Shown piece after piece: positions 1 to 24,363 of a stretch of DNA of 64,000 bases (position 1 is its first letter; each line of letters begins with the position of its first letter). A program made the position numbers and the translations under genes. This stretch comes from Burkholderiales bacterium. Lineage in GTDB: Bacteria > Pseudomonadota > Gammaproteobacteria > Burkholderiales > SG8-39. The notes under the pieces were generated by a model. It worked only from the letters and a program-made list of their open reading frames with translations, did not search any database and was not told the origin of the DNA. Location: the NCBI GenBank assembly GCA_038211455.1, contig JBBQVP010000003.1, forward strand, positions 157-64,156, in the 5' to 3' direction.

Positions 1-3000
1 ACGACGGGCGCGGTGACAGTGCTGACGCTGGCGGAGACGACGGACGACACGGATTCGATCTTCGGGGTGACGGGCGCGGCTGACATCATCGTCACGGGCG
101 GCGGCACGACACGCAACATCGTCATCGCGGGCCTCGGGGCAGACCATGTGAACGATCCTGGGATCACGCCGACCGATGTGCCAAGTGACGGCGATGACAT
201 CGTGCTGGGCGACAACGGCTACGTCACCTGGGACACCGCGGGTGTGCTGACCGCGTTTGCTTCGACCCAGCTCGCGCAGGGCGGCGACGATATCGTCTAC
301 GTCGGCAATGGCGATAACATTGTGGTGGGTAGTGTCGGCTCCGACGTGATCGTCGCGGGCTCGGGGCGTGATGTACTGATCGGTGACAACGGCCATGTGA
401 CCTACTGGGCGGGCTCTCTGCAGGCGAAGAAGGCGGAAACGACCGACACGGTCAACCAGCCGGGCTGGAACGACGTGATTGTCACCGGGGACGGCGTGAA
501 CATCGTGTTGGCGGGCATGGGCTCTGACCATGTAAACAATCCGCTCGTGTCCACAGGGGCCGTGCCCGGCAGCGACGACGATTTCGTCATGGGTGACAAC
601 GGCGAGTTCAACTGGGACAGCGCCGGACGTCTGGAACTCTTCAAGAGTACTGAACCGGGTTCCGGTGGTGACGACGTGCTCTGGGTGGGAGATGGGCAAA
701 ACTACGTGGTCGGCGGTTTCGGCGCCGATGTGATCAAAGCGGGTGTCGACAACGACGTGCTCTTGGGCGATAACGGCGAAGTCAGCTACACGGCAGGTAC
801 GACACTGGTTCTGCAGGCGAAGACCACCGACGCGACGCTGGGTGGGAACGATGAGATCGATGCTGGTCAGGGCGATAACCTTGTTCTCGCGGGCAAGGGT
901 GCGGACACGGTTGACGCCGGTACCGGCGCAGATCTGGTGATCGGGGACAACGGCCAGATCGACTGGACTTCGGCCGGCATCCTTTACCAGCTGGAGACGA
1001 CCGACACCCTGGCCACGACGGGTGGGAACGACATCCTCCGGGTCGGTGACGGCGACAACTTCGTGATGGGTGGGATGGGGGCGGACTTCATCGTCACGGG
1101 CCTTGGCACCGACACCATCCTGGGCGATAACGGAATCGCGCAGAAGGATGCGGTTGGCCTTGAGTTCGCGCTGGTAGCGACGAAGTCGCAGCCAAGCGCA
1201 GGCGGCGGGGTGGTGGACCTGGGTGGTAACGACCACATCGAGACGGGTGACGGGGACAAGCGGATCCTGGGTGGTGATGGGGCGGACTTCATCCTTGCGG
1301 GCAACGGCAACCATCTGGTGATGGGCGACAACGGCACGATCAGCTACGTGGGGATCGGTCTGACGGGTGCGGGGCTGCCGGAGATCTTCGAGACGACGGA
1401 CACGTTGGCGGCGACGGGTGGCGACGACCGGATCACTCTGGGTAATGCCACGGGCGAGAGCTTCGTGCTGGGTGGTATGGGCGCGGACACGATCCTGACG
1501 GGTTCGGGCACGCACACGATCCTGGGTGACAACGGGATTGCGCAGAAGGACATTGAGGGCAACAACTTCGCGCTGGTGCGCACGAAGTCGCAGCCAAGCG
1601 CAGGCGGCGGGGTGGTGGACCTGGGTGGTAACGACCACATCGAGACGGGTGACGGGGACAAGCGGATCCTGGGCGGTGATGGGGCGGACTTCATCCTTGC
1701 GGGCAATGGCAACCACGTGGTGTTCGGTGACAATGGCCAAGTGACCTATGTGGCGTTGGGCCTTCCAGGAGCCGGTCTGGAGAGACTTTACGAAACCACT
1801 GACACCATTACCGTCACGGGCGGAAATGATGCGATAACGCTGGGAGACGGGAATGGCGTTGTCATCGGCGGGATGGCCGCGGATACGATCACGACCGGGA
1901 CTGGTGGCGAAACGATCCTGGGCGACAACGGACGTATTGAAAGGGACGCCACCGGTGCCGTGTTTGTACGGATCGAAACGACGGTAATCGATCAGGGTGG
2001 TGGCGACGCAATCCTGACCAGAGACGGCAACAAGATTGTTCTTGCGGGTTATGGCAACGACTCCGTTGTGACCGGCACTGGCGACGACATCGTGTTCGGC
2101 GACAACGGTGAAATCGATTTCACCAACGGGATCATCACCAGACTTGCCACCACCGATGTCATCGCGTCGACGGGCGGCGACGACAACATCAATGCGGACG
2201 ATGGCACGAATATTGTCTTCGCCGGGGTAGGCAACGATGCCGTACGGACCGGTGCAGGGGCTGACATCATTGTTGGCGATAACGGCACGATCACCAACGA
2301 TCCGAACGGCATCATCCTGCAAGTCATATCCGGTGATCCTCTGCTCGGCGGCAATGATGCCGTGTCGACGGGCGACGGAAGCAACATTGTCATCGGTGGC
2401 GTTGGAAACGACGCCGTCTTTGGTGGCGCCGGGACGGATCTACTGTTCGGAGACGCCGGCCGTATTGACTTTGTCAACGGGGTCGTGAGCTATATTCTCC
2501 CGATTGACGTCATGCTGGGTGGCGACGACATCCTGGACGGCGCGGGCGGACGCGACATTCTGATCGGCGGTATTGGGTTCGACCAGTTGGGCGGTAATCT
2601 GACCGATGACCTGCTGTTTGGCAGTGTCGCTGCAATCACGCTTTCGGGCGGGACCGTCGCGACCCTGGAAAGCGAATGGCCGGATCTGGAAACCTATACG
2701 CTGTACTCGGCCTTCGATGTTCGCGATGGTGATCGAGGTATCGGCAACCAGCCGTTGACCAGGAAAATCGACCTGCTAGTACCGCGCAAGGGTGCGAGCG
2801 AAGCGCCAGGCAGTGAAATCGGACTATCCACACCGTTGCTCGAAGCGACGGTATTCCAGAAGCTTTTCAATTCGCAGGTCGTGCATCAGCCGTCGTCGCC
2901 CTCGCGGAGCGTGCTCACCGAGGCGGAAGCAGATTCGGTGGCGGGCGGGCAAGGTCTTGGTAACCGAGGTCTGAACGAACCCGGACCGAACGATCAGGGT

Positions 3001-3594
3001 TCGAACGAGCAGCGTTCCAATGAACAAGAGCCCAATGGGCAGAATCCAGGTGCGACAGATCCGAACGGTCAGCTACGGCAAATTCCATCCGGAACGGAAG
3101 AACTGCCCGGACGGTTCCAGGGGCAAGGCGCGGAGCCAGCAGCGGATTCAACTGACGGTCTGGCAGCAGGAGCAGTGAATGTCGGGGGGCTGGTGCTGGA
3201 GGACGGGACAGCCGTAGGTGTACTTGCGGCGGGAGTCGCCGGGGCAATTGGCGTAGAGAGTGTTCTAGGGCGCTCTGCTGCTCCCGGTGGCTATACCGCT
3301 GCTTCAACTGCCAGGCTCTATGATCCAAAGACGGGAAAGATGTCCGCCCGTCCGGAAGTCGGGTCGAAGACGCGTTCAGGGATCCTCGACCGCGATGCCA
3401 TGGCTGGTGGGCGCGAAGGAAAGCCGGCGAGCTTGACGCGGCGTGCGCTCGACGCCATTACGCGCAGGTGGTTCGGGTCGGTTGCAGTTGAGCAGGGCAT
3501 GGCGGTTCACAAGCCGCAGTTGGAGGCCTCAACGCTAGATACGCAGACGGCGCAGAAGCCTCATGAAACCCGGAAGACCCGCATCGAGTGGTAG
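1..3594 (+). CDS. Giant Ca2+-binding beta-roll / RTX-like repeat protein, 5' end outside the window
   Basis: Frame 1 is open from nt 1 (track ORF 13..3594). Units of about 65 aa rich in GxGxD / GDNG motifs are repeated more than 12 times. Canonical RTX nonapeptides GGDDILDGA-GGRDILIGG-IGFDQLGGN lie at about nt 2518-2625. The non-repeat C-terminal ~320 aa has a Q/N/E/P-rich tract, a Gly/Ala hydrophobic stretch and a basic tail. Confidence 0.8.
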   Translation, partial: TTGAVTVLTLAETTDDTDSIFGVTGAADIIVTGGGTTRNIVIAGLGADHVNDPGITPTDVPSDGDDIVLGDNGYVTWDTAGVLTAFASTQLAQGGDDIVYVGNGDNIVVGSVGSDVIVAGSGRDVLIGDNGHVTYWAGSLQAKKAETTDTVNQPGWNDVIVTGDGVNIVLAGMGSDHVNNPLVSTGAVPGSDDDFVMGDNGEFNWDSAGRLELFKSTEPGSGGDDVLWVGDGQNYVVGGFGADVIKAGVDNDVLLGDNGEVSYTAGTTLVLQAKTTDATLGGNDEIDAGQGDNLVLAGKGADTVDAGTGADLVIGDNGQIDWTSAGILYQLETTDTLATTGGNDILRVGDGDNFVMGGMGADFIVTGLGTDTILGDNGIAQKDAVGLEFALVATKSQPSAGGGVVDLGGNDHIETGDGDKRILGGDGADFILAGNGNHLVMGDNGTISYVGIGLTGAGLPEIFETTDTLAATGGDDRITLGNATGESFVLGGMGADTILTGSGTHTILGDNGIAQKDIEGNNFALVRTKSQPSAGGGVVDLGGNDHIETGDGDKRILGGDGADFILAGNGNHVVFGDNGQVTYVALGLPGAGLERLYETTDTITVTGGNDAITLGDGNGVVIGGMAADTITTGTGGETILGDNGRIERDATGAVFVRIETTVIDQGGGDAILTRDGNKIVLAGYGNDSVVTGTGDDIVFGDNGEIDFTNGIITRLATTDVIASTGGDDNINADDGTNIVFAGVGNDAVRTGAGADIIVGDNGTITNDPNGIILQVISGDPLLGGNDAVSTGDGSNIVIGGVGNDAVFGGAGTDLLFGDAGRIDFVNGVVSYILPIDVMLGGDDILDGAGGRDILIGGIGFDQLGGNLTDDLLFGSVAAITLSGGTVATLESEWPDLETYTLYSAFDVRDGDRGIGNQPLTRKIDLLVPRKGASEAPGSEIGLSTPLLEATVFQKLFNSQVVHQPSSPSRSVLTEAEADSVAGGQGLGNRGLNEPGPNDQGSNEQRSNEQEPNGQNPGATDPNGQLRQIPSGTEELPGRFQGQGAEPAADSTDGLAAGAVNVGGLVLEDGTAVGVLAAGVAGAIGVESVLGRSAAPGGYTAASTARLYDPKTGKMSARPEVGSKTRSGILDRDAMAGGREGKPASLTRRALDAITRRWFGSVAVEQGMAVHKPQLEASTLDTQTAQKPHETRKTRIEW
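1117..1914 (+). repeat. Intragenic tandem duplication (two ~400-nt / 134-aa units) inside the RTX-like gene
   Basis: Unit 1 starts at ATCCTGGGCGATAACGG (1117) and unit 2 at 1519 (offset 402 nt). By my hand alignment the core 1180-1314 matches 1582-1716 with only two mismatches (1272 T/C, 1305 C/T). The flanks are much more diverged. Confidence 0.85.
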
Positions 3595-3787
3595 TCGATA
3601 TCGCTCCGCGGTAGCGGAATCCGAGCGGACGCAAGGCCCCGACTTATTCCCTGCGCGTGATCCTCGCGTCTGGCGCGCAATTGAGCATGGTCCGCTTTTG
3701 CGGGACGAGCGCATACAAAGGGTGATGCAACGTCACGCCGTGTAGAAGCGGGATTCCCGACCATCGAATTAAAGAAAAAACTTATAA

Positions 3788-5662
3788 TTGCCCGTTGTGA
3801 AAATCCTCTCCAGTTCCGAAAATGCAGGCATAGAGGAACTAGTTCCCGTCTGGGGACATCTTGCCAGTGCGACGACGCGAAGCGAGTTCTTTAAATCGTG
3901 GCTGCAGCTCCAATGCGAAGCCATTTCGGGAACGATCAGCGGCGTTGCTGTCATAGGCACCGCGGATACCGGTCCGTTTGCTCCAGTCGCATTCTGGCCG
4001 AGCCAGCAGGGCGGCGCACCGCGGCTTGCAGAGGTTGCAGAAAAGGCACTCGCTGAACGGCAGGCCGTGTTGAGCGCGTTGATGCCGCAAGAGAGCCCAA
4101 ATACGCATGTAGACCGATCGCACGGGCTGGCGTTCCCCATCGAATTCGATCACCAGTTGTACGGCGTGGTTGCCGTAGAGGTATCCGATCGACCAGACAG
4201 TGAATTGCAGTGGGCGCTACAAAGACTGCAATGGGGTAGCGCGTGGGTAGAAGCCTATCTGAGGGGCGAGCAGCAGAGGGAAAGTGATGCTACCCAAGAG
4301 CGCCTCATCACCGCATTGGACATGGTCGCCTCCGTGGTGGAGGAAACCCGCTTCGATCCGGCGTGTCGCAGTCTCGTAACGGAGCTCGCGATCAAACTGC
4401 AATGTGACCGCGTCAGCCTTGGAATCGTGCGTCGAGGCCATACCGAAGTGGTCGCGCTGTCGCATAGTGCACAGTTCGGAAAGCGCATGAACCTCATCCA
4501 TGCAGTCGGAGCGGCAATGGATGAGGCGATAGACCAGAAAGCCGTGGTTAGGTATCCAGCGGACGGCGACGACGAGATGGTCGTTATCAGAGACCATGAG
4601 CAGTTGGCGACCATGAATGGAATTGCAGCGGTATTAACGGTGCCCATGGTCGGTCGGGAAGGATTTGCGGGTGCTTTGACTTTCGAGCGTCCTGCCGGCA
4701 TACCGTTTCTCGATTCCGATGTGGAACTCTGCCAGTCTGTCGGCGCTGTGGTTGCGCGGATCCTGGAGATTCAGGAGATCAACGAGCGCTCGCTGTTCCG
4801 GAGGTTTCTGGATTCGGGCAAGACCGAGCTGGAAAAATTGATCGGCCCCCGTCATATCAAGAGAAAGCTGGTCATGGCAGTTTCAGTGTTTCTGGTGGGA
4901 TTCTTTTCCATTGCCACACAGGACTACCGCGTAACCGCCAATGCAACGCTTGAGGGGGCGGTCAGGCGGACCCTGGCGGCGCCGTTCGACGGCTATATTC
5001 TGAGCGCCAAGGCACGGGCTGGGGACGTTGCGACCGAGGGCGCCGTTCTCGCCACGCTCGACGATCAGGACTTGCTGCTGGAACGATTGAAATGGGCAAC
5101 CCAATACGCGCAGTACCTGAAGCAGCATCGGGAGGCTGTGGCAAACCACGACCGCGCCAAAGCGCAAATTGCGGAGGCCCTGTACGAACAGGCACGCGCG
5201 CAGGTCAACCTTCTGGACGAGCAGCTGTCGCGTGCGGCCATCAAGGCGCCGTTCGATGGGGTGATCGTCAAAGGGGATTTGTCGCAAGCACTGGGATCTG
5301 CGGTAAAGCGCGGAGACGTCCTGTTTGAAGTCACGCCTCTGCAGTCGTACCGGGTCATCCTCGAGGTGGATGAAGGCGAAATAGTGGACGTAGCGACTGG
5401 GAGGAAGGGCGCTTTGGTGCTGGGTTCGATTACCGACGCCACGTTTCCATTCACCATAAGGAACGTTACACCGGTCACTAACGCACGTGAAGGGCGGAAC
5501 TATTTCCGGGTGGAGGCTATCCTTGAAGGCGCAACGCAACGCTTGCGTCCAGGCATGGAAGGGGTTGGAAAAATTGAGGTAGAACCCAGAAAGGTGATCT
5601 GGATCTGGACGCACAAACTGGTGAACTGGGCCAGGCTGTTCCTGTGGACTTACCTGCCATGA
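3788..5662 (+). CDS. Tandem-GAF domain protein fused to a HlyD-family membrane-fusion (periplasmic adaptor) domain
   Basis: The N-terminal ~330 aa show two GAF-like patterns (e.g. ...VLTVPMVGREGFAGALTFER...). One TM helix (LVMAVSVFLVGFFSIA). Then a HlyD-type lipoyl/coiled-coil/beta-barrel region (APFDGYILSA...IKAPFDGVIVKGD...). The start is uncertain: TTG 3788 or GTG 3797, with no clear SD. Confidence 0.8.
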   Translation: MPVVKILSSSENAGIEELVPVWGHLASATTRSEFFKSWLQLQCEAISGTISGVAVIGTADTGPFAPVAFWPSQQGGAPRLAEVAEKALAERQAVLSALMPQESPNTHVDRSHGLAFPIEFDHQLYGVVAVEVSDRPDSELQWALQRLQWGSAWVEAYLRGEQQRESDATQERLITALDMVASVVEETRFDPACRSLVTELAIKLQCDRVSLGIVRRGHTEVVALSHSAQFGKRMNLIHAVGAAMDEAIDQKAVVRYPADGDDEMVVIRDHEQLATMNGIAAVLTVPMVGREGFAGALTFERPAGIPFLDSDVELCQSVGAVVARILEIQEINERSLFRRFLDSGKTELEKLIGPRHIKRKLVMAVSVFLVGFFSIATQDYRVTANATLEGAVRRTLAAPFDGYILSAKARAGDVATEGAVLATLDDQDLLLERLKWATQYAQYLKQHREAVANHDRAKAQIAEALYEQARAQVNLLDEQLSRAAIKAPFDGVIVKGDLSQALGSAVKRGDVLFEVTPLQSYRVILEVDEGEIVDVATGRKGALVLGSITDATFPFTIRNVTPVTNAREGRNYFRVEAILEGATQRLRPGMEGVGKIEVEPRKVIWIWTHKLVNWARLFLWTYLP

Positions 5663-5693
5663 AACGCCCGGATTCCCTCCTTCCGGACTGAAC

Positions 5694-7853
5694 GTGGAAT
5701 CCCTGTTCAGTTCCTCCTGGTACCGGGTTGCGAGCGTCGTTCCACGCCTGCGCGGCCACGCTGCCATCCACAGGCACGTCTACCGGGGGAAAGTCTGGTA
5801 CGTGCTTCAGGATCGTGCCACGGGTCGGTATCACCGTTTTTCGCCGATAGCTAACATGGTGATCGGGTTGATGAACGGCAAAAGATCCGTTCGCGAAATC
5901 TGGAATGTTGCCTGCACCCGCCTGGGCGACAACGCGCCGACACAGGACGAGGTTATCAATCTGCTTGCGGCCCTGCACAGGGCCGACGTGCTGCAGACCG
6001 ACGCATCGCCCGATATCCAGGAGCTGCAGGAAAGAAAGATTCTGCAGGAACGCATGAAACTCAAGCAGTACATCCAGAGTCCGCTGTCGCTGCGTATTCC
6101 ATTGCTCGATCCGGACCGGATTCTTCTTTGGATGAGCCCGCTGACGAATCGCCTGTTTGGATTGGGGGGCGCCATCCTCTGGCTGCTTGTAGTCGGATGG
6201 GGAGTTGTCCTGGCTGCTTCAAACTGGACCGAACTGACCAAGGACATGGGTGATCGGATCTGGTCTGCGCAGAATCTTGTCCTGATGGGCTTGGTGTTTC
6301 CGATTGCCAAGATAATCCATGAATTCGGACACGCTGCGGCAGTCAAAGCGCGCGGTGGAGAAGTGCACGAAATGGGCGTGATGCTCCTCGTGCTGATGCC
6401 AATCCCTTACGTGGATGCGTCGGCATCGCTTGCGCTGCGGGAGAAGCGAGACCGAATGCTGGTTGGGGCCGCCGGCATGCTGGTTGAATTGTTCGTGGCG
6501 GCGCTTGCGCTGTTCGTATGGATCAACGTCGAGCCCGGCCTGGTGCGCGCTGTCGCCTACAACGTAATGATTGTGGCGGGCATATCGACGCTTATATTCA
6601 ATGCGAATCCACTGCTTCGCTTTGACGGCTATTACATACTCGCCGATTACCTGGAAATACCGAACCTGGGCCAGCGTTCGAACGAGTATCTCGGCTATCT
6701 AATAAATCGTCACGTTTTCGGAGTCAAGACGGCCGTTTCGAAAGAGTCCACACCGGGGGAGCGTCGCTGGTTCGTCTTCTATGCCATCGCGTCGTTCATC
6801 TATCGGATGTTCGTAATGATCTCCATCGCGCTTGTTGTCGCGCAACGCTACTTCGTGATCGGTGTTCTGTTCGCCGTCTGGTCGTTGTACTCATCGCTGG
6901 TGGTCCCGCTCGGCAAGAAGCTTGCCTACCTGTTCTCGTCCTCGGAACTCCATGGCCGCAGAGTCCGTGCGCTCACGGTAACCGGCTTCACAGTTGCAAT
7001 CCTCGCGATTGCCATCGGCTGGCTTCCCGCGCCATCCTGGACCCGCTCGGAGGGGGTTGCCATCGCGCCGATCAACACGCACGTAAGAGCGACGGTAGAT
7101 GGTTTCATTACGAAGGTCGTCGCGTCGCCCAATCAACTGGTCAGGCGCGGGGATCCGTTGATTTTCACCGAAGACCCCGAATTGAAAGCGCGTGTGCAGT
7201 CACTCGAGGCGCAACTGCTTGAGCAGCAGGCGCGCTATGCGGCGGCACGCGAAGATCGAGTGCAACTAAACATAATCGCGGAGGAAATCCTGCAGGTCTC
7301 AGAGCGGCTGACTAACGCGCGTCAGCGACTCCGTGACCTTGTAATACGCAGCCCGAGCGACGGTTACTTTGTCATGCCGCAGGCGGATGACGCGCCTGGA
7401 AAGTTTGTGCATCGAGGTGAATTGCTGGGCTATGCCCTCGACTTCACCAAGGTGACCGTGCAGGTGGTCGTTCCGCAGAGCGATATAGACATCGTTCGCG
7501 AGATGACGCGTCGTGTGCAACTTCGGCTCGTAGAGCGCGTTGCGGAGGTATTGCCAGGCACAGTTCTCCGGGTCGTGCCGGCGGCGACCGATCAGCTGCC
7601 CAACATGGCGCTGAGCGCACAAGGTGGAGGCGAGGTACCGCTTGATCCGTCTGCGCCGGCCGATCCGGCTCGCAAGGGGGAATCCAAGGCGGCGACGACA
7701 ATGTTTATTTTTGAACTGGAAATCGAGAATAGGGACAGAATCAGTGCACTTGGCAGCCGGATCTACGTTCGGTTCGAGCGAAGACCGGAACCCCTTGCGC
7801 ATCAGTGGTATCGGGCGGTCAGAGGCGTCCTGCTCAAGAAGTTCAATGTTTGA
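5694..7853 (+). CDS. Site-2 protease (peptidase M50) fused to a C-terminal HlyD-type adaptor domain; N-terminal PqqD/RRE-like segment
   Basis: HEFGH zinc motif (IIHEFGHAAAVKARGG) and the second S2P motif NANPLLRFDGYY. Multiple TM helices. The C-terminal ~280 aa have HlyD-like hairpin/barrel signatures (ATVDGFITKV...IRSPSDGYFVMP). GTG start at 5694, 31 nt after the upstream stop. Confidence 0.85.
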   Translation: MESLFSSSWYRVASVVPRLRGHAAIHRHVYRGKVWYVLQDRATGRYHRFSPIANMVIGLMNGKRSVREIWNVACTRLGDNAPTQDEVINLLAALHRADVLQTDASPDIQELQERKILQERMKLKQYIQSPLSLRIPLLDPDRILLWMSPLTNRLFGLGGAILWLLVVGWGVVLAASNWTELTKDMGDRIWSAQNLVLMGLVFPIAKIIHEFGHAAAVKARGGEVHEMGVMLLVLMPIPYVDASASLALREKRDRMLVGAAGMLVELFVAALALFVWINVEPGLVRAVAYNVMIVAGISTLIFNANPLLRFDGYYILADYLEIPNLGQRSNEYLGYLINRHVFGVKTAVSKESTPGERRWFVFYAIASFIYRMFVMISIALVVAQRYFVIGVLFAVWSLYSSLVVPLGKKLAYLFSSSELHGRRVRALTVTGFTVAILAIAIGWLPAPSWTRSEGVAIAPINTHVRATVDGFITKVVASPNQLVRRGDPLIFTEDPELKARVQSLEAQLLEQQARYAAAREDRVQLNIIAEEILQVSERLTNARQRLRDLVIRSPSDGYFVMPQADDAPGKFVHRGELLGYALDFTKVTVQVVVPQSDIDIVREMTRRVQLRLVERVAEVLPGTVLRVVPAATDQLPNMALSAQGGGEVPLDPSAPADPARKGESKAATTMFIFELEIENRDRISALGSRIYVRFERRPEPLAHQWYRAVRGVLLKKFNV

Positions 7854-9840
7854 CACTAAGTCGCTGCTCCCAATCGTCCGCCCGGTGTATCCGGAGCAGG
7901 CAGACGCGCCCCCGGACAACTGGCTCGACGAAATTGGAGAGCGGTTTGTTGGGGCGATGACGCGCTCTGTGAGCGCGTGGCGAATCGGTCGGATCGATAT
8001 TGTCGCGTCGGTACGCACGCATGAAAAGCTGTTGGTCGGACTTGATCAGGACGCTCTCAGGGAGCGTGCACGCGATCTGGGAAAGTTGCTCCGGCGCGAC
8101 GGGTTTCGCCCGGATCTAGTCGCGCAAACGTTCGCCGTGATTTCTTCGCTCGCCGAATTGACGCTCCGCATGCGTCCCTTCGATGTCCAACTGCGCGGTG
8201 GCTGGATACTCGTGAACGGCATGGTTGCCGAAATGGAGACTGGCGAAGGAAAGACGCTCACTGCAACATTGCCTGCTTGCACTGCGGCTCTCGCGGGCGT
8301 GCCGGTACACGTGATCACCGTCAACGATTACCTGGTGACGCGTGATTCGGAGCTGATGACGCCTCTTTACGAGGCGCTGGGGCTTAGCGTCGGCGCCGTA
8401 ACTGAAACGCAGAACCCGGAGCAGCGGAAGCAGGCGTACACGCGAAACATCACCTATGGAACCAACAAGGTGATTGTATTCGATTATTTACGCGATCGAA
8501 TTACCCTGGCCTCTCAGAACAGCTCGATCAGATTACGAATGGAAAGTCTGGCCGGCCGAGGGTCACGGGTCCATCGCTTGCTCCTCAGGGGATTGTGTTT
8601 TGCGATCGTTGACGAGGCGGACAGCGTACTAATCGATGAAGCGCGAACGCCCCTGATCATTTCCGCGCCATCCGAGTCCGGTGATGAGGAGCTCGTCGCA
8701 CGGCAGGGAATCGAAATTGCGGAAACGCTAATCCGGAACGAGGACTATGCGATCCTCGGTAGCGAGAGGACGGCGGTACTTACGCAAGAGGGTCGCCGCC
8801 ACCTGGATGAAATCTGCGAGAAATACGGAGGCGTCTGGGCCGGGTTGATGCGCCGCGAGGAGCTCGTTACACAGGCATTGGTCGCGTTGTACATCTTTTC
8901 CCGTGACGATCACTATCTCGTTCGAGACGGCAAGATCCAGATCATCGATGAGTATACGGGAAGGGTGATGGCCGACCGCTCTTGGGAGCGCGGGATGCAT
9001 CAACTGATCGAGGTGAAGGAGGGGTGTGAAGTGACTGCGCAGAAGGAGCCGCTGGCGCGTATTAGTTACCAGCGTTTTTTTCGGCGCTACCTCCATCTTT
9101 CCGGAATGACCGGAACCGCGAAGGAAGTCGCTTCGGAGCTGGGCGCGGTTTACGGACTGTCTGTAGTTCGCATTCCGACGAATCGGCCGAGCAAGCGAAA
9201 GGTACTGCCCGAACGGGTTTTTGTAACCGAAGCCGAAAAGTGGGCATCGATTTCCGATCGTGTTCGAGAGATACACGCGCTTGGTCGTCCCATACTTCTT
9301 GGAACTCGTTCGGTCGCAGAGTCAGAACTGGCGAGCAACGTGCTAAACGATTTGCGGGTGGAGCATCAGGTTTTAAACGCAAAACAGGACGGAGAAGAGG
9401 CCGCAATCATTGCGTTGGCCGGAAAACGTGGCCAGATTACTGTTGCAACTAACATGGCCGGGCGTGGGACTGACATCAAACTGGATGAAGGTGTCGCCGA
9501 CGTCGGGGGCCTGCACGTGATCCTTTCGGAACGCCACGATTCCAAGCGAATAGACAGGCAGCTCGCCGGCCGCTGTGCGCGGCAGGGTGATCCGGGATAT
9601 TTTGAGTCGATTCTTTCAGTCGAAGGTTCGCTGAAATCTCTCGCAGGGGATTCTTTCCGGGCATTTTTTGGCCGATTGATATCTGGTTTTGGGCCCGGAT
9701 GGGTCGCTATACTTGGATCCTTTGTGATTCGGCAGGCGCAGAAGCGAGCAGAGCGTGCCCATACAAGGACACGCAAGGCGCTTCTCAAGCTGGACCAACA
9801 AATGGCGAAGGCGCTGTCGTTCTCGGGCCGAAATGAATGA
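7846..9840 (+). CDS. SecA-like DEAD-motor ATPase, truncated after the start of the helical scaffold (664 aa)
   Basis: Walker A METGEGKT, VITVNDYLVTRD, VDEADSVLIDEARTPLIIS, a PPXD-like insert, ATNMAGRGTDIKL, GRCARQGDPG, then IRQAQKRAERAHTRTRKALLKLDQQ and stop. ATG 7846 overlaps the upstream stop (ATGTTTGA). The track start at 7624 lies inside the upstream gene. Confidence 0.85.
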   Translation: MFDTKSLLPIVRPVYPEQADAPPDNWLDEIGERFVGAMTRSVSAWRIGRIDIVASVRTHEKLLVGLDQDALRERARDLGKLLRRDGFRPDLVAQTFAVISSLAELTLRMRPFDVQLRGGWILVNGMVAEMETGEGKTLTATLPACTAALAGVPVHVITVNDYLVTRDSELMTPLYEALGLSVGAVTETQNPEQRKQAYTRNITYGTNKVIVFDYLRDRITLASQNSSIRLRMESLAGRGSRVHRLLLRGLCFAIVDEADSVLIDEARTPLIISAPSESGDEELVARQGIEIAETLIRNEDYAILGSERTAVLTQEGRRHLDEICEKYGGVWAGLMRREELVTQALVALYIFSRDDHYLVRDGKIQIIDEYTGRVMADRSWERGMHQLIEVKEGCEVTAQKEPLARISYQRFFRRYLHLSGMTGTAKEVASELGAVYGLSVVRIPTNRPSKRKVLPERVFVTEAEKWASISDRVREIHALGRPILLGTRSVAESELASNVLNDLRVEHQVLNAKQDGEEAAIIALAGKRGQITVATNMAGRGTDIKLDEGVADVGGLHVILSERHDSKRIDRQLAGRCARQGDPGYFESILSVEGSLKSLAGDSFRAFFGRLISGFGPGWVAILGSFVIRQAQKRAERAHTRTRKALLKLDQQMAKALSFSGRNE

Positions 9841-9877
9841 TCGCCACCTTGTATCGCAGCACAATTTGGAAGAACGC

Positions 9878-10696
9878 ATGAAATACCTTGTCTGGGTGTT
9901 AACGCTCGTAGCTGCACTGGGCGCCCATTTTCAGGCGCACGCGCAGAACCCTGTGCGGCAAGGCGACGCTATCTCTGAGCCGCGCAGAGTATTGCGGGCA
10001 CCGCTCCCGAGCGCTTCCGAGGCTAAGTCGTCGCGAAACGCTTGGGACTGTCTGCTGGAGCCCCACTTGGTGGTAAGCGTGGGGAGCCCGATCGATGGGG
10101 TAATTCAGGAGGTGTTGGTTGATCGCGGCGACGAGGTGCGCAAAGGCCAGGTCGTGGCACGACTGCAGTCGGGTGTGGAGTCGGCGGCCGTGGAACTGAC
10201 CAAGGCACATATTGAGTTCGGGAAACGGAAGGTAGAACGCAACGAGGTGCTGTATCAAAAGCAGCTGATTTCCGCGCAGGACAAGGACGATATGGAGACC
10301 GAAGTTCGCCTGCGGGAACAGGAACTGAAGCGAGACCTCGAAAATTTGAAACTTCGCACTATTGTCAGTCCGCTGGACGGAATAGTCGTAGAACGACGTC
10401 TCACGAAAGGTGATCTGGTCCGGGCCGACAGGTCGGTGGTGCTGCGACTTGCGAAGATCGATCCGCTGAATGTGGAGGTCATCGCGCCCAGCGAATCCTA
10501 CGGGGCAGCGCGCATCGGGATGTCCGGCACCGTCAGCCTGCAGCCACTGCTCCCCGGTTCCTACAAAGCTACGGTTGTCACGGTCGACAAACTCATCGAT
10601 GCGGCGAGCGGGACCTTCGGGATTCGGCTGCAAATGCCGAATCCCGGAAACAAGATTCCCGCTGGGCTGAAATGTAGTGTCCGGCTGAATAAATAA
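9878..10696 (+). CDS. HlyD/efflux-type periplasmic adaptor (membrane fusion protein) with Sec signal peptide
   Basis: Internal ATG 9878 gives MKYLVWVLTLVAALGAHFQAHA-QNP (signal peptide). Lipoyl-like motifs (SPIDGVIQEVLVDRGDEVRKGQVVARL; SPLDGIVVER) and a short coiled coil. Confidence 0.8.
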   Translation: MKYLVWVLTLVAALGAHFQAHAQNPVRQGDAISEPRRVLRAPLPSASEAKSSRNAWDCLLEPHLVVSVGSPIDGVIQEVLVDRGDEVRKGQVVARLQSGVESAAVELTKAHIEFGKRKVERNEVLYQKQLISAQDKDDMETEVRLREQELKRDLENLKLRTIVSPLDGIVVERRLTKGDLVRADRSVVLRLAKIDPLNVEVIAPSESYGAARIGMSGTVSLQPLLPGSYKATVVTVDKLIDAASGTFGIRLQMPNPGNKIPAGLKCSVRLNK

Positions 10697-10755
10697 GCCG
10701 TCGCTGGTCGCGGTCGGGGCCGCTGGCTCGCAAGCAGGGGCCTTTGGTGAGCCTC

Positions 10756-10797
10756 TTGACCGGCGTCAATGAGGCGCGCGACTCGAGCGACCATAGT
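10756..10797 (+). promoter_or_regulatory. Crp/Fnr-type box TTGAC-CGGC-GTCAA plus -10-like CATAGT upstream of fhs
   Basis: Perfect palindromic half-sites at 10756-10769. The hexamer CATAGT (10792-10797) is centred 32 bp downstream of the box centre, which is class II (-41.5) geometry. The fhs ATG is at 10835. Confidence 0.55.
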
Positions 10798-10834
10798 GCT
10801 CCCCACTGATAAAAATCCAAGCAGGGGACCTTCC

Positions 10835-12505
10835 ATGCCTTCCGATATCGATATCGCACAAAAAGCCACGCTGCAGCGCATCGCAAAAGTTGCCCAGGAC
10901 AAACTCGGGATTGCCGAGGAACACCTGGAACCGTATGGCCATACGAAGGCGAAAGTTTCGTTCGAGTACCTGGAGACGCTGAAGGGCCGCAAGGACGGCA
11001 AGCTGATCCTGGTCACTGCGATCAGCCCCACCCCGGCGGGCGAAGGCAAGACCACGACCACCGTGGGCCTGGGCGACGCGCTTAACTACATCGGCAAGAA
11101 GGCCGTGATCTGCCTGCGCGAGCCCTCGCTCGGGCCGGTGTTCGGCGTGAAGGGCGGGGCGGCGGGCGGCGGCTACGCGCAGGTGGTCCCGATGGAGGAT
11201 ATCAACCTGCATTTCACCGGTGATTTCGGCGCGATCCAGCTGGCCAACAACCTGCTCGCTGCGCTGATTGACAACCATATCAGCCATGGCAACGAACTGG
11301 GTATCGATGTCCGCCGGATCCAGTGGAAGCGGGTCCTGGACATGAACGACCGCGCGCTGCGAGACATCGTGGTGGCGCTGGGCGGGACGGCCAACGGCTA
11401 TCCTCGCGAGGACGGCTTCGAAATCGTCGTCGCCTCCGAGGTCTTGGCTATCTTCTGCCTCGCGACATCGATCGAGGATCTTAAGAAGCGACTCGGCAAC
11501 ATCGTCATCGGATATACGCGTGACCAGAAGCCGGTTTGCGCGCGCGACCTGAGCGCCCATGGCGCGATGACCGTCCTGCTGAAGGACGCGCTCAAGCCCA
11601 ACTTGGTGCAGACTCTGGAGAACAACCCCGCGTTCATCCACGGCGGCCCGTTCGCGAATATCGCCCACGGCTGCAATTCGGTGATCGCGACGCAGGCGGC
11701 GCTCAAGCTCGCCGACTACGTGGTTACGGAGGCCGGTTTTGGCGCAGACCTTGGCGCGGAGAAGTTCGTCGACATCAAGTGCCGGAAGTCCGGATTGCGG
11801 CCATCGGCGGCTGTCATCGTGGCCACCGTGCGCGCCATGAAGTACCACGGCGGCGCTGACCTGAAGACCATCACCACCGAGAACGTGGATGCGCTTGCCA
11901 AGGGCATCGTGAACCTCGAGCGGCACGTCGAGAACGTGCAGAAGCACTACGGCATCCCATGCGTCGTGTCGATCAACAAGTTCGACGCTGACACCAAGGC
12001 CGAACTCGACCTCCTGTACGAGCGCATGAAAAAGCTGGGCGTGCCAGTCGTGCTGGCATCGCACTGGGCTGAGGGCGGCAAGGGTGCGGCCGAACTGGCA
12101 AACATGGTCGTCGAACTGTGCGAGCAGAAATCAAACTTCCAGTTCGTGTACGAAGAGCAGGACACGCTCTGGGAAAAGGTCAACAAGATCGCGAAGAAGA
12201 TCTACCGCGCTTCCGAGGTCACGGCGGACACCAAGGTCCGCAACCAGATCAAGAAGTTGCAGGAGGACGGGTACGGCCACTACCCCGTCTGCGTGGCCAA
12301 GACCCAGTCCTCGTTCTCCACGGACGCCTCGCTGCGCGGCGCGCCCGTCGACCACGTGGTCAATGTGCGCGAAGTCCGCCTCGCGGCTGGTGCGGAGTTC
12401 GTCGTAATGGTCTGCGGCGACATCATGACGATGCCCGGCCTGCCCAAGGTGCCCTCGGCCAACAAGATCGACTTCGTGGACGGAAAGGTCGTCGGCCTGT
12501 TCTGA
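10835..12505 (+). CDS. fhs: Formate--tetrahydrofolate ligase
   Basis: [16 protein letters not shown]... N-terminus, P-loop [15 protein letters not shown], and full-length (~556 aa) collinear resemblance to Fhs. The start was moved from the track's 10769 to ATG 10835. Confidence 0.95.
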
Positions 12506-12548
12506 CACCCGGTAAAATTCGCGCACCTCGAAGCGGGAGTTTGCACAG

Positions 12549-13295
12549 ATGCTCGAAATGCTCGGCTCGTACGATTTCTGGCTGGGACTGGCCAAGATCA
12601 TTGGCGTTAACATCGTGCTTTCCGGTGACAACGCGGTCGTGATCGCGCTTGCGGCGCGGTCGCTGCCGGCACGCCAGCAGAAGCTGGCGATATTCTGGGG
12701 TTCGGGGGCGGCGATCGTGATGCGGATCGTGCTCACGCTGTTCGCCGTGCAGCTCCTGGGGCTGCCCTGGCTGAAGCTTGTCGGCAGCCTGCTCCTCTTC
12801 TGGATCGGGGTGAAGCTGCTGGTCGAGGACGACGGTGGCGACGACATCGAGTCCAGCGATAACCTGATTGCCGCGATCAAGACGATCCTGATCGCCGATC
12901 TGGTGATGAGCCTCGACAATGTCATCGCGGTGGCCGCGGCTGCGGCAGGAAACATGACCCTGCTGGTCCTCGGGCTCGCGATTTCCATCCCGATGGTGAT
13001 CTTCGGTGCGACGCTGCTGCTCAAGCTCATGGAGCGCTTCCCGGTGATCATCACCGTCGGCGCCGCGCTGATCGGCATGGTGGCGGGGGAAATGCTGGTT
13101 ACAGACATCGCGCTGAAAGACTGGCAGAGCGCTGCCGGAATCGCGTTCGATGCAGCCGGAAAGCCGCATATCGGCGGGTTATCGCTGGAACTGCTTGCGG
13201 GGGCGCTGGGCGCGGCTTTCGTCGTGGCTTACGGCACCTGGCTTGCGAGGCGGGCTGAGGCAGGGCGGGCGGTAGGGGATGCCGGCAAAGGATGA
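12549..13295 (+). CDS. TerC/YjbE-family integral membrane protein
   Basis: Duplicated LSGDNAVVIALAA / MSLDNVIAVAAAA motifs typical of the TerC family, in a multi-TM protein. Lies 43 nt downstream of fhs. Confidence 0.8.
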   Translation: MLEMLGSYDFWLGLAKIIGVNIVLSGDNAVVIALAARSLPARQQKLAIFWGSGAAIVMRIVLTLFAVQLLGLPWLKLVGSLLLFWIGVKLLVEDDGGDDIESSDNLIAAIKTILIADLVMSLDNVIAVAAAAAGNMTLLVLGLAISIPMVIFGATLLLKLMERFPVIITVGAALIGMVAGEMLVTDIALKDWQSAAGIAFDAAGKPHIGGLSLELLAGALGAAFVVAYGTWLARRAEAGRAVGDAGKG

Positions 13296-13315
13296 ACTAC
13301 GCAATGCGGTTTTTG

Positions 13316-13357
13316 TTGATAGCAATCAAGTGAGATACTCGGGAGCGTAAGCACAAT
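13316..13357 (+). promoter_or_regulatory. Fnr/Crp-consensus box TTGAT-AGCA-ATCAA plus -10-like CACAAT upstream of tctC
   Basis: Perfect 14-bp palindrome at 13316-13329. CACAAT (13352-13357) is centred exactly 32 bp downstream of the box centre. Confidence 0.55.
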
Positions 13358-13406
13358 TCGGGGAACGATCAACGCGGCAGGACCACACACAGACGGTTCG
13401 CCGCAC

Positions 13407-13437
13407 GACGCGTACGGACAGCTCAGGACGCGTACGG
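13407..13437 (+). repeat. 11-nt direct repeat GACGCGTACGG x2 in the tctC leader
   Basis: Copies at 13407-13417 and 13427-13437, a 20-nt period. They lie between the predicted promoter and the strong RBS AAAGGAGG. Confidence 0.6.
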
Positions 13438-13465
13438 GGCAGTTTCATAAAAAGGAGGCAGGAAA

Positions 13466-14485
13466 ATGACACAGAAATTCAGCAAAGGGCTGTGCGCCGG
13501 GCTTGCGGCGGTCGCCATGGCGGGATTGCCGCTCGCCAGCTACGCAGCATGGGAGCCAACCAAGACGGTGGAGTTCATCGTGCCGGCAGGTACTGGCGGC
13601 GGCGCCGACCAGATGGCGCGCGTAATCCAGTCAATCATCGCCAAGCACGGACTGGTCAAGACCTCGATGGTTGTCGTCAACAAGGGCGGGGGTGCGGGGT
13701 CCGAGGGGTTTCTGGATGTCAAGGGTGCCGCTGGCGACCCGCACAAGATCATCATCACGCTCTCGAATCTATTCACGACGCCGCTCGCGCAAGGCACGCC
13801 GTTCAACTGGCGTGACCTGACTCCGGTGCAGATGATGGCGCTGGACCAGTTCGTTCTGTGGGTGAATGCCTCAAAGCCCTACAAGACGTCCAAAGAGTAC
13901 ATCGACGCCGTCAAGAAGGCGGGACCGAACAAATTCAAGATGGCGGGAACAGGCGCCAAGCAGGAAGACCAGATCATCACCGCCGCAATCGAGCAGGCGA
14001 CCGGCACGAAATTCATTTATATCCCGTTCCGCGGCGGCGGCGACGTCGCCGTGCAGCTGGTCGGCAACCACGTTGATTCGACAGTCAACAATCCGATCGA
14101 AGCCGTGGCGCAGTGGCGAGCCGGCAAGCTCAGGGCGCTGTGCGTTTTCGACCCCAAGCGCATGCCGTACAAGACTAAGGTCAGCGAAACAATGGCCTGG
14201 TCCGACATCCCGACCTGCAAGGAACAGGGCCTTGACGTCGATTACCTCATGTTGCGCGGGATCTTCATGGCCGGTGGCGTCACGCCCGAGCAGGTGCAGT
14301 ACTACGTCGATGTATTGAAGAAAGTGCGCGAGACGCCGGAATGGAAGGACTTCATGGAGAAGGGCGCGTTCAACCAGACCGCTCTTTCCGGGAAAGACTT
14401 TGCTGATTGGGTGGCAAAAGAGGAGGCGCGCCACATCGGCCTCATGAAGAAGGCAGGATTCATGGCCGCACCTGCAGCAAAATAA
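13466..14485 (+). CDS. tctC: Tripartite tricarboxylate transporter substrate-binding protein (Bug/TctC family)
   Basis: Signal peptide (GLAAVAMAGLPLASYA), about 320-aa mature protein with Bug-family pattern (VPAGTGGGADQMAR...VVNKGGGAG), followed by tctB/tctA-like genes. Confidence 0.85.
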   Translation: MTQKFSKGLCAGLAAVAMAGLPLASYAAWEPTKTVEFIVPAGTGGGADQMARVIQSIIAKHGLVKTSMVVVNKGGGAGSEGFLDVKGAAGDPHKIIITLSNLFTTPLAQGTPFNWRDLTPVQMMALDQFVLWVNASKPYKTSKEYIDAVKKAGPNKFKMAGTGAKQEDQIITAAIEQATGTKFIYIPFRGGGDVAVQLVGNHVDSTVNNPIEAVAQWRAGKLRALCVFDPKRMPYKTKVSETMAWSDIPTCKEQGLDVDYLMLRGIFMAGGVTPEQVQYYVDVLKKVRETPEWKDFMEKGAFNQTALSGKDFADWVAKEEARHIGLMKKAGFMAAPAAK

Positions 14486-14494
14486 CGGCGAAGA

Positions 14495-14518
14495 GCCGCC
14501 GCGCTTTTGCGCGGCGGC
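14495..14518 (+). other. Perfect GC-rich intercistronic hairpin between tctC and tctB
   Basis: GCCGCCGCGC-TTTT-GCGCGGCGGC: 10-bp perfect stem with a 4-nt loop and no downstream U-tract. Confidence 0.6.
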
Positions 14519-14531
14519 GCAGGGACGAGGC

Positions 14532-15038
14532 ATGAAACAAAAAACCAACAGCAACGCCTCCATCGGCACCAAGGGCGTGGAGATCGGCGTTGCGCTGATC
14601 GTCCTCGCGCTTGGCGCCCTGGTAATCTACGACAGCGCGCGGCTGGGAGCGAAGTGGGCCGACGACGGCCCACAGGCGGGCTACTTTCCCTTCTATATCG
14701 GCGTGATGCTTTGCGTCGCGAGCGCCGTGAATCTGGTGCGGGCACTGTTGTTGAAACCCGCAAAAGCGTCTGTTTTTGTCGAGTACGGGCAACTCAAGCT
14801 CGTGATGAAAGTACTGATCCCGACGGCGGTGTATGCGGGCGTGATTTCAACGCTGGGCCTGTACCTTGCATCCACCGTGTTCATTGCCTTCTTCATGCGC
14901 TGGCTAGGAAGATATCCGTGGTGGAAAGTTGCGCTTGTCAGCATTGGAAACAGCGTGTTTTTCTTCCTCGTCTTCGAGATGTGGTTCCGAATCCCGTTGC
15001 CCAAGGGACCGCTCGAAGCGGCTCTGGGTCTCAACTAA
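14532..15038 (+). CDS. tctB: Tripartite tricarboxylate transporter small membrane subunit (TctB family)
   Basis: 168-aa, four-TM hydrophobic protein positioned between tctC-like and tctA-like genes. Confidence 0.75.
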   Translation: MKQKTNSNASIGTKGVEIGVALIVLALGALVIYDSARLGAKWADDGPQAGYFPFYIGVMLCVASAVNLVRALLLKPAKASVFVEYGQLKLVMKVLIPTAVYAGVISTLGLYLASTVFIAFFMRWLGRYPWWKVALVSIGNSVFFFLVFEMWFRIPLPKGPLEAALGLN

Positions 15039-15050
15039 GGGTTGACTGGG

Positions 15051-16559: not shown

Positions 16560-16560
16560 G

Positions 16561-17169
16561 CTAGTCCAGCAGCTTCTGCTTCAGCCTCGATAGCGTTTCT
16601 GGCGTCAGGTTGAGATAGGCGGCAAGTTCCTTTTTGGGGATCCGGCCGCTGAGTTCGGGATGCTTTCGCTGGAAGCGCAGCAACCGGCCGGGGGCGTCCA
16701 GAAGGTGCAGGGTGATGGTGTGCGCCATGACCTCGGACATCAGCTTCATGACCTCGTACTCGAAGCGTGACTTGACCTGCTCGTGGCGGTCGAGGAATTC
16801 GACCCAAAGTGGCATGGAGATTTTTGCGGTACGCACTTTCGTGACTCCGACGATCGAGTACGGAACCGGTGTCTTGAGGCGCCAGGCGGCGTAAGAAGTG
16901 TCCATGTCGGTTTCGGCGGCGAAACGCAGGATCATTTCGTGGCCCTCGGAATTGGACACCACCCGCTTCAGCATTCCGTCGAGCACGAAGAACTGCTCCA
17001 TTTCGGTGTCGCCCTGCCGGACCAGCAGTTCTCCCTTGCCGTAATCGGCGATGTCGAGCAACGGCTCCAGTTCGTCCCAGTCGGCCGGCGACATGTCGCC
17101 GAGGACGAGATTCTGCTTGAGCTGCAACCGGACAGTATTGTTTTGCGGGTGGTTCGCGATCGATGCCAT
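16561..17169 (-). CDS. Crp/Fnr-family transcriptional regulator (cNMP-binding-type effector domain + HTH)
   Basis: Beta-roll effector-domain pattern (GELLVRQGDTEMEQFFVLDGMLK). C-terminal HTH IPKKELAAYLNLTPETLSRLKQ carries the Fnr-type E-xx-SR recognition motif. There is no N-terminal Cys cluster. Confidence 0.85.
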   Translation of the reverse strand: MASIANHPQNNTVRLQLKQNLVLGDMSPADWDELEPLLDIADYGKGELLVRQGDTEMEQFFVLDGMLKRVVSNSEGHEMILRFAAETDMDTSYAAWRLKTPVPYSIVGVTKVRTAKISMPLWVEFLDRHEQVKSRFEYEVMKLMSEVMAHTITLHLLDAPGRLLRFQRKHPELSGRIPKKELAAYLNLTPETLSRLKQKLLD

Positions 17170-17215
17170 TGCGGCGGGACGCGTGGGCGGGCCGGGCGCG
17201 TATTTTAGACGAAAA

Positions 17216-17261
17216 AACCTTGACCGCAGTCAAGGTTGCCCGATCGGCGCCTGCCTAACAT
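17216..17261 (+). promoter_or_regulatory. 22-bp perfect palindrome AACCTTGAC-CGCA-GTCAAGGTT (core Crp/Fnr-type box) plus -10-like TAACAT upstream of oxc
   Basis: Core TTGAC-N4-GTCAA at 17220-17233. TAACAT (17256-17261) is centred 32 bp downstream. Located in the divergent crp-oxc intergenic region. Confidence 0.55.
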
Positions 17262-17328
17262 ACCTGCCTACACAAAAAGGCTGGTTCCGGTAGCAGCTCA
17301 TGGTGGTAGCAACGCACAGGAGGCCGCA

Positions 17329-20429: not shown

Positions 20430-20437
20430 GAGGGCGC

Positions 20438-24356: not shown

Positions 24357-24363
24357 GGCTTGA

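Follow-up and report, generated by a model that had tools for sequence, protein, structure and literature searches.

The four-gene cassette and its proteins

The DNA examined here is a stretch of 64,000 nucleotides from a Burkholderiales bacterium (assembly GCA_038211455.1, contig JBBQVP010000003.1, positions 157 to 64,156 of the forward strand), which we call the window. Near its start, behind the 3' end of a gene for a giant protein with RTX repeats, lie four genes that encode three adaptors of the HlyD type, one of them fused to an intramembrane protease, and a short SecA-like ATPase. We refer to these four genes as the cassette, and to the protease-adaptor as M50-HlyD. The features are as follows:

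1..3594, plus strand (open reading frame, ORF, 13..3594): 3' end of the gene for an RTX-like giant, C-terminal 1,193 amino acids (aa), open at the start of the window and contig
3211..3594, plus strand: C-terminal tail of the giant, in which a hydropathy scan shows a hydrophobic stretch rich in Ala and Gly at aa 1067-1085, then basic residues and the ending ...KTRIEW
3788..5662, plus strand: GAF-HlyD adaptor, 624 aa, with a cytoplasmic GAF region, one transmembrane (TM) helix and a periplasmic membrane-fusion domain
5694..7853, plus strand: M50-HlyD, 719 aa, with a putative domain like the PqqD-type recognition element (RRE) of ribosomally synthesised and post-translationally modified peptides (RiPPs), a polytopic intramembrane protease of the HExxH type that resembles M50 and daptide proteases, and a membrane-fusion domain similar to MexA and MacA
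7846..9840, plus strand: short SecA-like ATPase, 664 aa, with two nucleotide-binding domains (NBD1 and NBD2), a preprotein cross-linking domain and a scaffold helix of which only the beginning is present
9878..10696, plus strand: small periplasmic adaptor of the HlyD/RND type, 272 aa, with a signal peptide

A preliminary description of the locus had reported four co-directional, tightly packed genes, and the ORF check reproduced its spacing exactly: GAF-HlyD and M50-HlyD are 31 nt apart (5663-5693), the small adaptor follows the SecA-like gene after 37 nt (9841-9877), and the M50-HlyD and SecA-like genes share a ATGTTTGA start/stop overlap at 7846-7853. The GAF-HlyD gene has a putative TTG start at 3788. 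Given that the same order is found in the loci of other genomes, the four-gene arrangement is far beyond chance. A promoter and terminator scan of 3400-11000 was uninformative on operon structure, as it yielded no promoter-like site, and terminator-like sites appeared at the level of shuffled sequence.

HlyD-type domains had been announced for three of the four genes, and profile matches were indeed obtained in the first, second and fourth. In Pfam, the GAF-HlyD protein matches HlyD_3 (E=5.5e-18) and also HlyD_D23, and has a predicted TM helix at aa 357-375. Its GAF region had been called tandem. One GAF domain is solid (aa 191-324, E=2.6e-11), whereas the second is a sub-threshold GAF_2 match at aa 51-137 (E=0.003, 18 bits). 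The small adaptor matches TIGR01730 above its cutoff (E=5.3e-33), as well as HlyD_D23 (E=1.1e-16) and HlyD; the signal peptide ascribed to it is of the AxA type, read by eye.

The second protein carries the site-2 protease (S2P) motifs expected of it, HEFGH at 209 and NANPLLRFDG at 303. Both lie inside TM segments, of which about eight are predicted at 157-444, and both are invariant in the homologue alignment. The Pfam model Peptidase_M50 (PF02163) scores 20.6 bits, under its cutoff of 27.2, and the stronger match is to the model for the daptide HExxH intramembrane protease (NF041824), with E=9e-47 and 160 bits, under a cutoff of 300. Among curated families, leader-processing proteases of RiPPs come closest to the membrane domain. 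HlyD_D23/HlyD_3 matches are also found in Pfam. An AlphaFold2 (AF2) model of the whole protein (pLDDT 79) had MexA, AcrA and MacA as top Foldseek matches, and its C-terminal half superposes on these three proteins, including the alpha-hairpin, the element by which adaptors of this type meet TolC-type channels. Foldseek on the full model returned adaptors only, with no match to RRE or protease domains.

A feature beyond the preliminary description is a probable PqqD-like domain at the N-terminus of M50-HlyD. The PqqD model (PF05402) matches aa 36-99 with E=1.2e-4 and 22.8 bits, just under the cutoff of 23.4; the same family is precomputed on many M50-HlyD homologues, and orthologues are called 'PqqD family' by the NCBI annotation pipeline (PGAP). 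In the AF2 model, residues 23-96 form three strands followed by three helices, a predicted secondary structure consistent with an RRE. The deposited NCBI protein (P0121, 665 aa) begins 54 codons past the GTG at 5694. Because the skipped N-terminal residues are strongly conserved among homologues of 719-720 aa, this gene call is probably too short, and the omitted segment, 5694-5855, would belong to the PqqD/RRE-like domain.

The third protein is a SecA-type DEAD motor, as had been proposed: SecA_DEAD (E=1.9e-96), SecA_PP_bind and P-loop_SecA are all matched in Pfam, and the GEGKT, DEAD, GRGTD and RQGDPG motifs of the ATPase are intact. Its alignment to solved SecA and SecA2 structures covers residues 35-603 of Bacillus subtilis SecA only, a segment that runs from NBD1 through the preprotein cross-linking domain and NBD2 into the beginning of the scaffold helix. 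Going by the domain boundaries of SecA structures, the protein presumably lacks the helical wing, the C-terminal tail and the two-helix finger with which SecA enters SecY. Housekeeping SecA models (TIGR00963 and NF009538) score 571-580 bits against cutoffs of 800-814, and the SecA2 models TIGR03714, TIGR04221, TIGR04397 and NF012136 score 378-528 bits against cutoffs of 725-1100; the best sequence match in the PDB is the SecA2 of Clostridioides difficile. Because the alignment ends after NBD2 and all SecA and SecA2 models remain under cutoff, the protein appears to be a motor with a substrate clamp and without the canonical SecY interface. A length of around 664 aa is conserved across the short-SecA family, and the named relatives in the match list, with 58-60% identity, are Betaproteobacteria.

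Annotation of these proteins in public records is variable. Short SecA proteins are named 'prepilin peptidase', 'DEAD/DEAH box helicase', 'hypothetical protein' or 'preprotein translocase subunit SecA' by PGAP (L001, L084, L091, L092 and L086; L numbers designate loci found in the survey below), and protease-adaptors are named 'PqqD family protein', 'peptidase M50' or 'efflux RND adaptor'. The module is systematically mis-annotated.

Upstream of the cassette, the RTX character of the giant was borne out by a HemolysinCabind match (E=2.3e-22) in ORF 13..3594. Five stretches of RTX nonapeptides are followed by a low-complexity tail of about 330 aa that ends in IEW. Over approximately 1,000 aa, the fragment is 37-42% identical to the C-termini of two giant ORFs, one of 14,100 aa (L001) and one of 15,258 aa (L002), which precede the same cassette in their own genomes.

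The window was also searched for the partners that HlyD-type adaptors might be expected to have, as neither a pump nor an outer-membrane factor had been noticed in its 64 kb. None was found: tblastn probes for TolC, SapC, RND and ATP-binding cassette (ABC) proteins gave no match at E<=1, no pair of Walker-A and LSGGQ motifs was detected, and Pfam scans of 20 large ORFs, with small ORFs only partly scanned, revealed no ABC, RND or TolC protein. Neither a DUF3467 gene nor a second SecA was found in the window; the contig as a whole is 64,230 nt long.

Conservation of the cassette and of its giant neighbours

To learn how widespread the arrangement is, one genome per GTDB species was scanned with an alignment of the protease-adaptor. 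Relatives of M50-HlyD were found in at least 541 species genomes; the family is large, and so is that of the SecA-like protein. The counts that follow rest on 80 loci that were fetched, and the denominators for gene order are the loci with room for the gene in question. These loci span Alpha-, Beta-, Gamma- and Deltaproteobacteria, Nitrospirota, Myxococcota, Rokubacteria/Methylomirabilia, Acidobacteriota and one metagenome-assembled genome (MAG) of Flavobacteriales. GAF-HlyD lies directly upstream of M50-HlyD in 70/71 loci, the SecA-like gene directly downstream in 64/65, and the small adaptor is present in 55/62. Hence, the view of the cassette as a conserved functional unit, which had been made to depend on recurrence of the four genes in other genomes, stands: the combination is kept across many phyla.

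Other neighbours are less constant. A DUF3467 gene lies immediately upstream of GAF-HlyD in 29/70 loci; SapC, a protein associated with type I secretion systems (T1SS), is encoded in 11/80; and TolC is encoded in cis in 7/80, directly after the small adaptor on a Methylosinus plasmid. Matches resembling ABC ATPases occur in 4/80 loci, none of them adjacent to the cassette, and on three complete plasmids the giant gene has no T1SS-like ABC exporter beside it. The locus had been described as an adaptor locus without an ABC transporter, and the survey agrees in that an ABC exporter is not a conserved neighbour. Neighbourhood clustering of the related loci showed no recurrent secY2 or secYEG gene, and no recurrent small precursor gene or modifying enzyme. 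The presence of plasmid-borne cassettes in other species suggests that a housekeeping secA resides on the chromosome there.

The possibility that DUF3467 is a SecB-like chaperone was considered and found no support: hhalign against Escherichia coli SecB returned a probability of 0.4%. The best match of the DUF3467 profile among PDB sequences had E=0.59, and an AF2 model built on a shallow alignment was unusable (pLDDT 49.5).

The preliminary description did not recognise the gene combination as a described system. That claim has to be withdrawn: both the module and the idea of ATPase substitution were put forward by Kamneva, Poudel & Ward in 2015 (PLoS One 10:e0129066; PMC4452313). Their module, defined in silico, consists of a SecA_DEAD protein without wing and scaffold, a Peptidase_M50+HlyD protein, a GAF+HlyD protein and a HlyD/Biotin_lipoyl protein; an OEP/TolC gene is sometimes co-encoded, an ABC transporter never. 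The example given is META1p2402-2399 of Methylobacterium extorquens AM1. They saw in the SecA domain a candidate source of ATPase activity, in place of an ABC protein, and in the M50 domain a possible inner-membrane component (PMC4452313). The composition and order of the four proteins in the window are the same, and so is the SecA_DEAD protein lacking wing and scaffold; there is hardly any doubt that our locus belongs to this secondary SecA_DEAD/three-HlyD module. The 2015 paper does not mention a cargo for the module, RTX, adhesins, giant proteins, PqqD/RRE, DUF3467 or SapC, associations that come from the present survey.

Giant proteins are frequent in the vicinity of the cassette. A same-strand ORF of at least 1,500 aa was found upstream in 30/50 loci for which 6 kb or more of that flank is available, and on one side or the other in 35/50 loci of at least 15 kb. 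The giant neighbours contain adhesin-type domains (RTX, cadherin, Big_9, He_PIG, cohesin/dockerin and PKD), and their sizes can be illustrated by six cases:

14,100 aa: Ideonella
15,258 aa: Burkholderiales MAG
8,847 aa: Methylosinus plasmid pMSC49a
8,148 aa: Alisedimentitalea
10,603 aa: Pontibrevibacter
10,518 aa: Mesorhizobium ciceri

In one locus (L086), on the circular 62-kb Pseudohalocynthiibacter plasmid NZ_CP049043.1, the first 7.6 kb upstream of DUF3467 contain no listed gene, and the whole record has only 23 annotated features. The giant gene probably crosses the origin of this record, and may take up a large share of the plasmid.

When the N-termini of large neighbours were examined, a common design became apparent. 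In all nine visible cases, a Lys/Arg-rich stretch is followed by a motif of the LEPR-XLL type, and in seven of the nine the NCBIfam model NF012209 ('LEPR-8K', LEPR-XLL domain) scores above its curated cutoff. The Pontibrevibacter giant is named 'LEPR-XLL domain-containing protein' by PGAP. The motifs read as follows:

Methylosinus: TLEPRVLLNAD
Nitrospira (L010): SLEPRLLLSAT
L070: SLEPRYLLSAD
L077: AIEPRVMMAAD
Alisedimentitalea, upstream of the annotated start: QLEPRLLLAAD
Mesorhizobium ciceri: ALEPRLLLSAD
Pontibrevibacter: PMEPRVLLSAD
L047: ELEARLLFSAD
E. coli plasmid variant without SecA (see below): ALESRQLFDGA

None of the nine leaders contains a hydrophobic core; therefore, they are not Sec signal peptides.

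The opposite end of the giants is less uniform. A universal C-terminal signal was sought and rejected, as the C-termini are heterogeneous and only the pattern [ILVF][DENQS]W stood out: in the last 90 aa of cassette-linked large proteins it is enriched 6.6-fold (19/34, Fisher p=1e-9), a figure to be read knowing that the pattern was defined post hoc and that the 34 sequences are partly related. Many giants end in an Ala/Gly-rich hydrophobic stretch, basic residues and [ILVF][DENQS]W (L001, L003, L012-L014, L027 and L034), and the same succession is seen in the giants of L037, L061, L067, L073 and L084.

A distant relative of the cassette that lacks both the SecA-like and the GAF-containing proteins was also detected. 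In it, TolC, the small adaptor, a HlyD protein of 449 aa and M50-HlyD are encoded in this order behind an Ig-like protein of 4,459 aa, whose N-terminus reads ...RFALESRQLFDGA. The operon contains TolC, three adaptors and the M50 protein, and has no gene for a SecA-like or any other NTPase. It is found on the E. coli plasmid NZ_CP081687.1 (44829-64580; L087/L090) and in Azospirillum (NZ_CP029835.1; L088), and among complete E. coli genomes it is present in 24 of 5,426, mostly on IncF plasmids. Its protease-adaptor is 27% identical to that of the window. The adaptor/M50 core may work without a dedicated ATPase, and the SecA-like motor may be an add-on and not the sole engine.

The remainder of the window has other contents. 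A metabolic cluster of the formate/oxalate type occupies 10769-21370 (formate-tetrahydrofolate ligase, TerC, a TctC/TctA transporter, a thiamine pyrophosphate enzyme, a family III CoA-transferase and a formyltransferase). It is followed by a signalling cluster at 21723-32519, with a CHASE2-Ser/Thr kinase, a PP2C phosphatase, an FHA protein, a CHASE2-adenylate/guanylate cyclase and a GAF-HD protein; inside it, at 28466-30826, lies a gene for an ATPase with GAF, MshEN and T2SSE domains. Two large tetratricopeptide-repeat proteins with glycosyltransferase family 41 (O-GlcNAc-transferase-like) domains are encoded at 32610-34730 (plus strand) and 37071-39668 (minus strand), adjoining genes for sugar-nucleotide enzymes and a NeuB-family gene (45898-47817).

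A proposed export route and its alternatives

The data outlined above led us to consider the cassette as an export machine and the adjacent giant as its substrate. That the giant is the cargo we regard as quite likely. That the cassette forms a dedicated, T1SS-like apparatus, independent of an ABC transporter, for export and processing of this giant repeat protein is the interpretation towards which we lean, if only slightly; whether the SecA-like protein is the energiser of transport seems to us evenly balanced.

Every step of the working model below is inferred. The cargo would carry a non-hydrophobic N-terminal leader, made of a basic stretch and LEPR-XLL, and the leader would be recognised by the cytoplasmic PqqD/RRE-like domain of M50-HlyD, with DUF3467, where present, acting as an adaptor or chaperone. 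The short SecA-like ATPase would dock on the cytoplasmic face of the adaptor complex and thread the unfolded chain from the N- to the C-terminus. The polytopic HExxH domain would provide the passage through the inner membrane, in whole or in part, and would also clip the leader. From there, the three adaptors would build a periplasmic tube to a TolC-type channel, which would be encoded in cis in some genomes and elsewhere in the genome in the present case. The GAF region might gate the process upon a small-ligand signal, and Ca2+-dependent folding of RTX, cadherin or Ig repeats outside the cell would block back-sliding. PqqD-type RREs bind leader peptides, and the nearest relatives of the protease domain are RiPP leader proteases. 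It is on these grounds that we tentatively propose reading of the LEPR-XLL leader by the RRE and its cleavage by the M50 domain, a proposal that falls somewhat short of an even chance. More speculative is the notion that the cassette, together with TolC, SapC and DUF3467, makes up a distinct Gram-negative secretion system, in which a cleavable basic/LEPR-XLL leader is read by an RRE-type domain and a SecA-like motor independent of SecYEG drives the N-terminus first into an S2P-like/adaptor/TolC conduit.

Observations made on Chlorochromatium bear on the model. Its symbiosis proteins, of 36,806 aa and 20,647 aa, have N-terminal LEPRxLL domains, and SapC and TolC are encoded on their flanks; the LEPRxLL giants Cag_663 and Cag_665 of Chlorobium chlorochromatii are said by the authors to 'lack known signals', and their co-expression cluster includes Cag_1676, a horizontally acquired secondary secA (bioRxiv 10.64898/2026.03.19.712371). 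The authors of this preprint draw no link from Cag_1676 to the module discussed here. We regard these data as independent external support for the giant-export model.

Several facts weigh against the export model. An S2P-like domain is not known to form a protein-conducting channel. Since the variant without SecA exists, not every adaptor/M50 core can depend on the SecA-like ATPase. The N-terminus of the giant lies beyond the window, so that the LEPR-XLL leader is known from related loci only, and no DUF3467, SapC or TolC was found in the window; the PqqD and M50 Pfam scores are marginal in its M50-HlyD. Fifteen of the 50 long loci have no giant ORF within approximately 10 kb, and the RTX repeats of the cargo are proximal to the C-terminus, as in classical T1SS substrates with a C-terminal signal. 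In addition, the downstream genes of M. extorquens AM1 are poorly expressed in exponential phase (PMC4452313).

The position of the RTX repeats near the C-terminus of the window's giant agrees with a different scenario, which we consider unlikely: export by a canonical ABC T1SS encoded elsewhere, by means of a C-terminal signal, with the cassette serving, afterwards or in parallel, as a regulated retention and release system. The M50 domain might then cut an anchor at the N-terminus when the GAF sensor so directs, much as LapA is controlled by LapD/LapG. The conserved-looking [ILVF][DENQS]W motif would fit such a signal, the GAF domain suggests ligand control, and the variant without SecA shows that the adaptor/M50 core needs no ATPase of its own. 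This scenario leaves no role, however, for a SecA-like ATPase that is strictly co-conserved (64/65 loci) or for three TolC-type adaptors; furthermore, no ABC exporter is conserved near cassettes or giants, and TolC, when encoded in cis, comes directly after the cassette and not after an ABC gene.

Two further explanations appear improbable. One is that the cassette matures and exports a small ribosomal peptide in a RiPP-like manner, with RRE, leader protease and adaptor, while adjacency to giants merely reflects co-mobilisation on islands or plasmids. The PqqD-like RRE agrees with this idea, as do the curated families nearest to the protease, which are the daptide and epipeptide (YydH/LiaK) leader proteases; radical-SAM, methyltransferase and 2-oxoglutarate (2OG)-oxygenase genes downstream of the cassette in one locus (L002) can also be counted in its favour. 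Yet no small precursor gene or modifying enzyme recurs in neighbourhood clustering, giants are adjacent in 60-70% of loci across phyla, and a conserved leader-like motif heads the giants in 9/9 visible cases. The other explanation makes the short SecA an accessory Sec ATPase akin to SecA2, which would send the giant through SecYEG to the periplasm and leave only the outer-membrane step to the adaptors and TolC. Dedicated SecA2 systems for special cargo are an established precedent, and the protein is highly similar to SecA/SecA2 motor domains and retains the preprotein cross-linking domain. Against a SecYEG route stand a protein that ends just past NBD2, presumably without the finger, wing and C-terminal tail by which canonical SecA engages SecY and SecB; visible cargo leaders that are basic and non-hydrophobic, unlike Sec signal peptides; and the failure of secY2 or secYEG genes to recur in the loci.

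The genes of L002 mentioned above (12961-18640, downstream of the cassette) encode a WelO5-like 2OG oxygenase, a methyltransferase and two B12-binding radical-SAM proteins. They were seen in that locus only, and possibly form a modification cluster.

Relation to known secretion systems and wider meaning

The export model places the cassette between several known systems. With the canonical T1SS of giant RTX adhesins (HlyBD-TolC, LapBCE-LapA, SiiCDF-SiiE and OI-28 of enterohaemorrhagic E. coli, EHEC) it shares adaptors with an alpha-hairpin, a presumed TolC-type channel, a giant Ca2+-binding repeat adhesin encoded alongside and accessory genes of the SapC type. EHEC OI-28 was examined as a potentially related system and set aside as a canonical ABC T1SS. 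The cassette differs from such systems in having a SecA-type motor and no ABC transporter, and three different adaptors, two of which are fused to cytoplasmic or membrane modules; its presumed cargo has an N-terminal LEPR-XLL leader, suggesting N-first instead of C-first transport.

A second SecA paralogue for special substrates is likewise the hallmark of accessory Sec systems (SecA2 of mycobacteria, Clostridioides and Listeria; SecA2/SecY2 of streptococci). The hosts of the cassette, by contrast, are Gram-negative, the SecA-like protein is shortened after NBD2 and scores under every NCBIfam SecA2 cutoff, there is no SecY2, and the gene is genetically coupled to adaptors and an intramembrane protease. 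Coupling of a leader-recognition element and a membrane protease to export is also known from RiPP and bacteriocin systems (peptidase-containing ABC transporters with C39, daptide NF041824 and YydH/LiaK). In the cassette, however, the apparent substrate is thousands of residues long, protease and TolC-type adaptor are joined in one polypeptide, and scores are under the equivalog cutoffs. A further parallel may be drawn with giant proteins of Omnitrophota and Actinobacteria that contain fused SecA_DEAD and preprotein-binding domains (West-Roberts et al., 2023 preprint). There too, a SecA motor without scaffold and wing is proposed to act in export of the giants themselves, but the motor is inside the giant polypeptide, near type II secretion genes, whereas in the window it is a separate protein of 664 aa in an adaptor/M50 operon.

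In the searchable literature we found no paper linking the cassette to giant proteins, and none on the association seen here with LEPR-XLL giants, an RRE-like reader, DUF3467, SapC and TolC. The module is not treated in a review of polymorphic toxins or in one of tripartite pumps.

If the model is correct, the cassette would represent a route distinct both from the T1SS, with its ABC transporter and C-terminal signal, and from the Sec pathway. A SecA motor that does without SecY, paired with TolC-type adaptors and an intramembrane protease able to read leaders, would amount to a novel means of powering and gating a conduit across the cell envelope. How proteins of at least 10,000 residues leave the bacterial cell is a question to which such a route would offer an answer; it would account for sizes from 8,000 to beyond 30,000 residues, the giants of the Chlorochromatium symbiosis included. 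The survey provides a testable cargo-machine pair for what has been an annotation curiosity for ten years. Cultured hosts are available in Methylobacterium/Methylorubrum, Mesorhizobium ciceri, Achromobacter piechaudii, Pseudomonas and Vibrio, and the variant without SecA, carried by IncF plasmids of E. coli, could be a tractable model.

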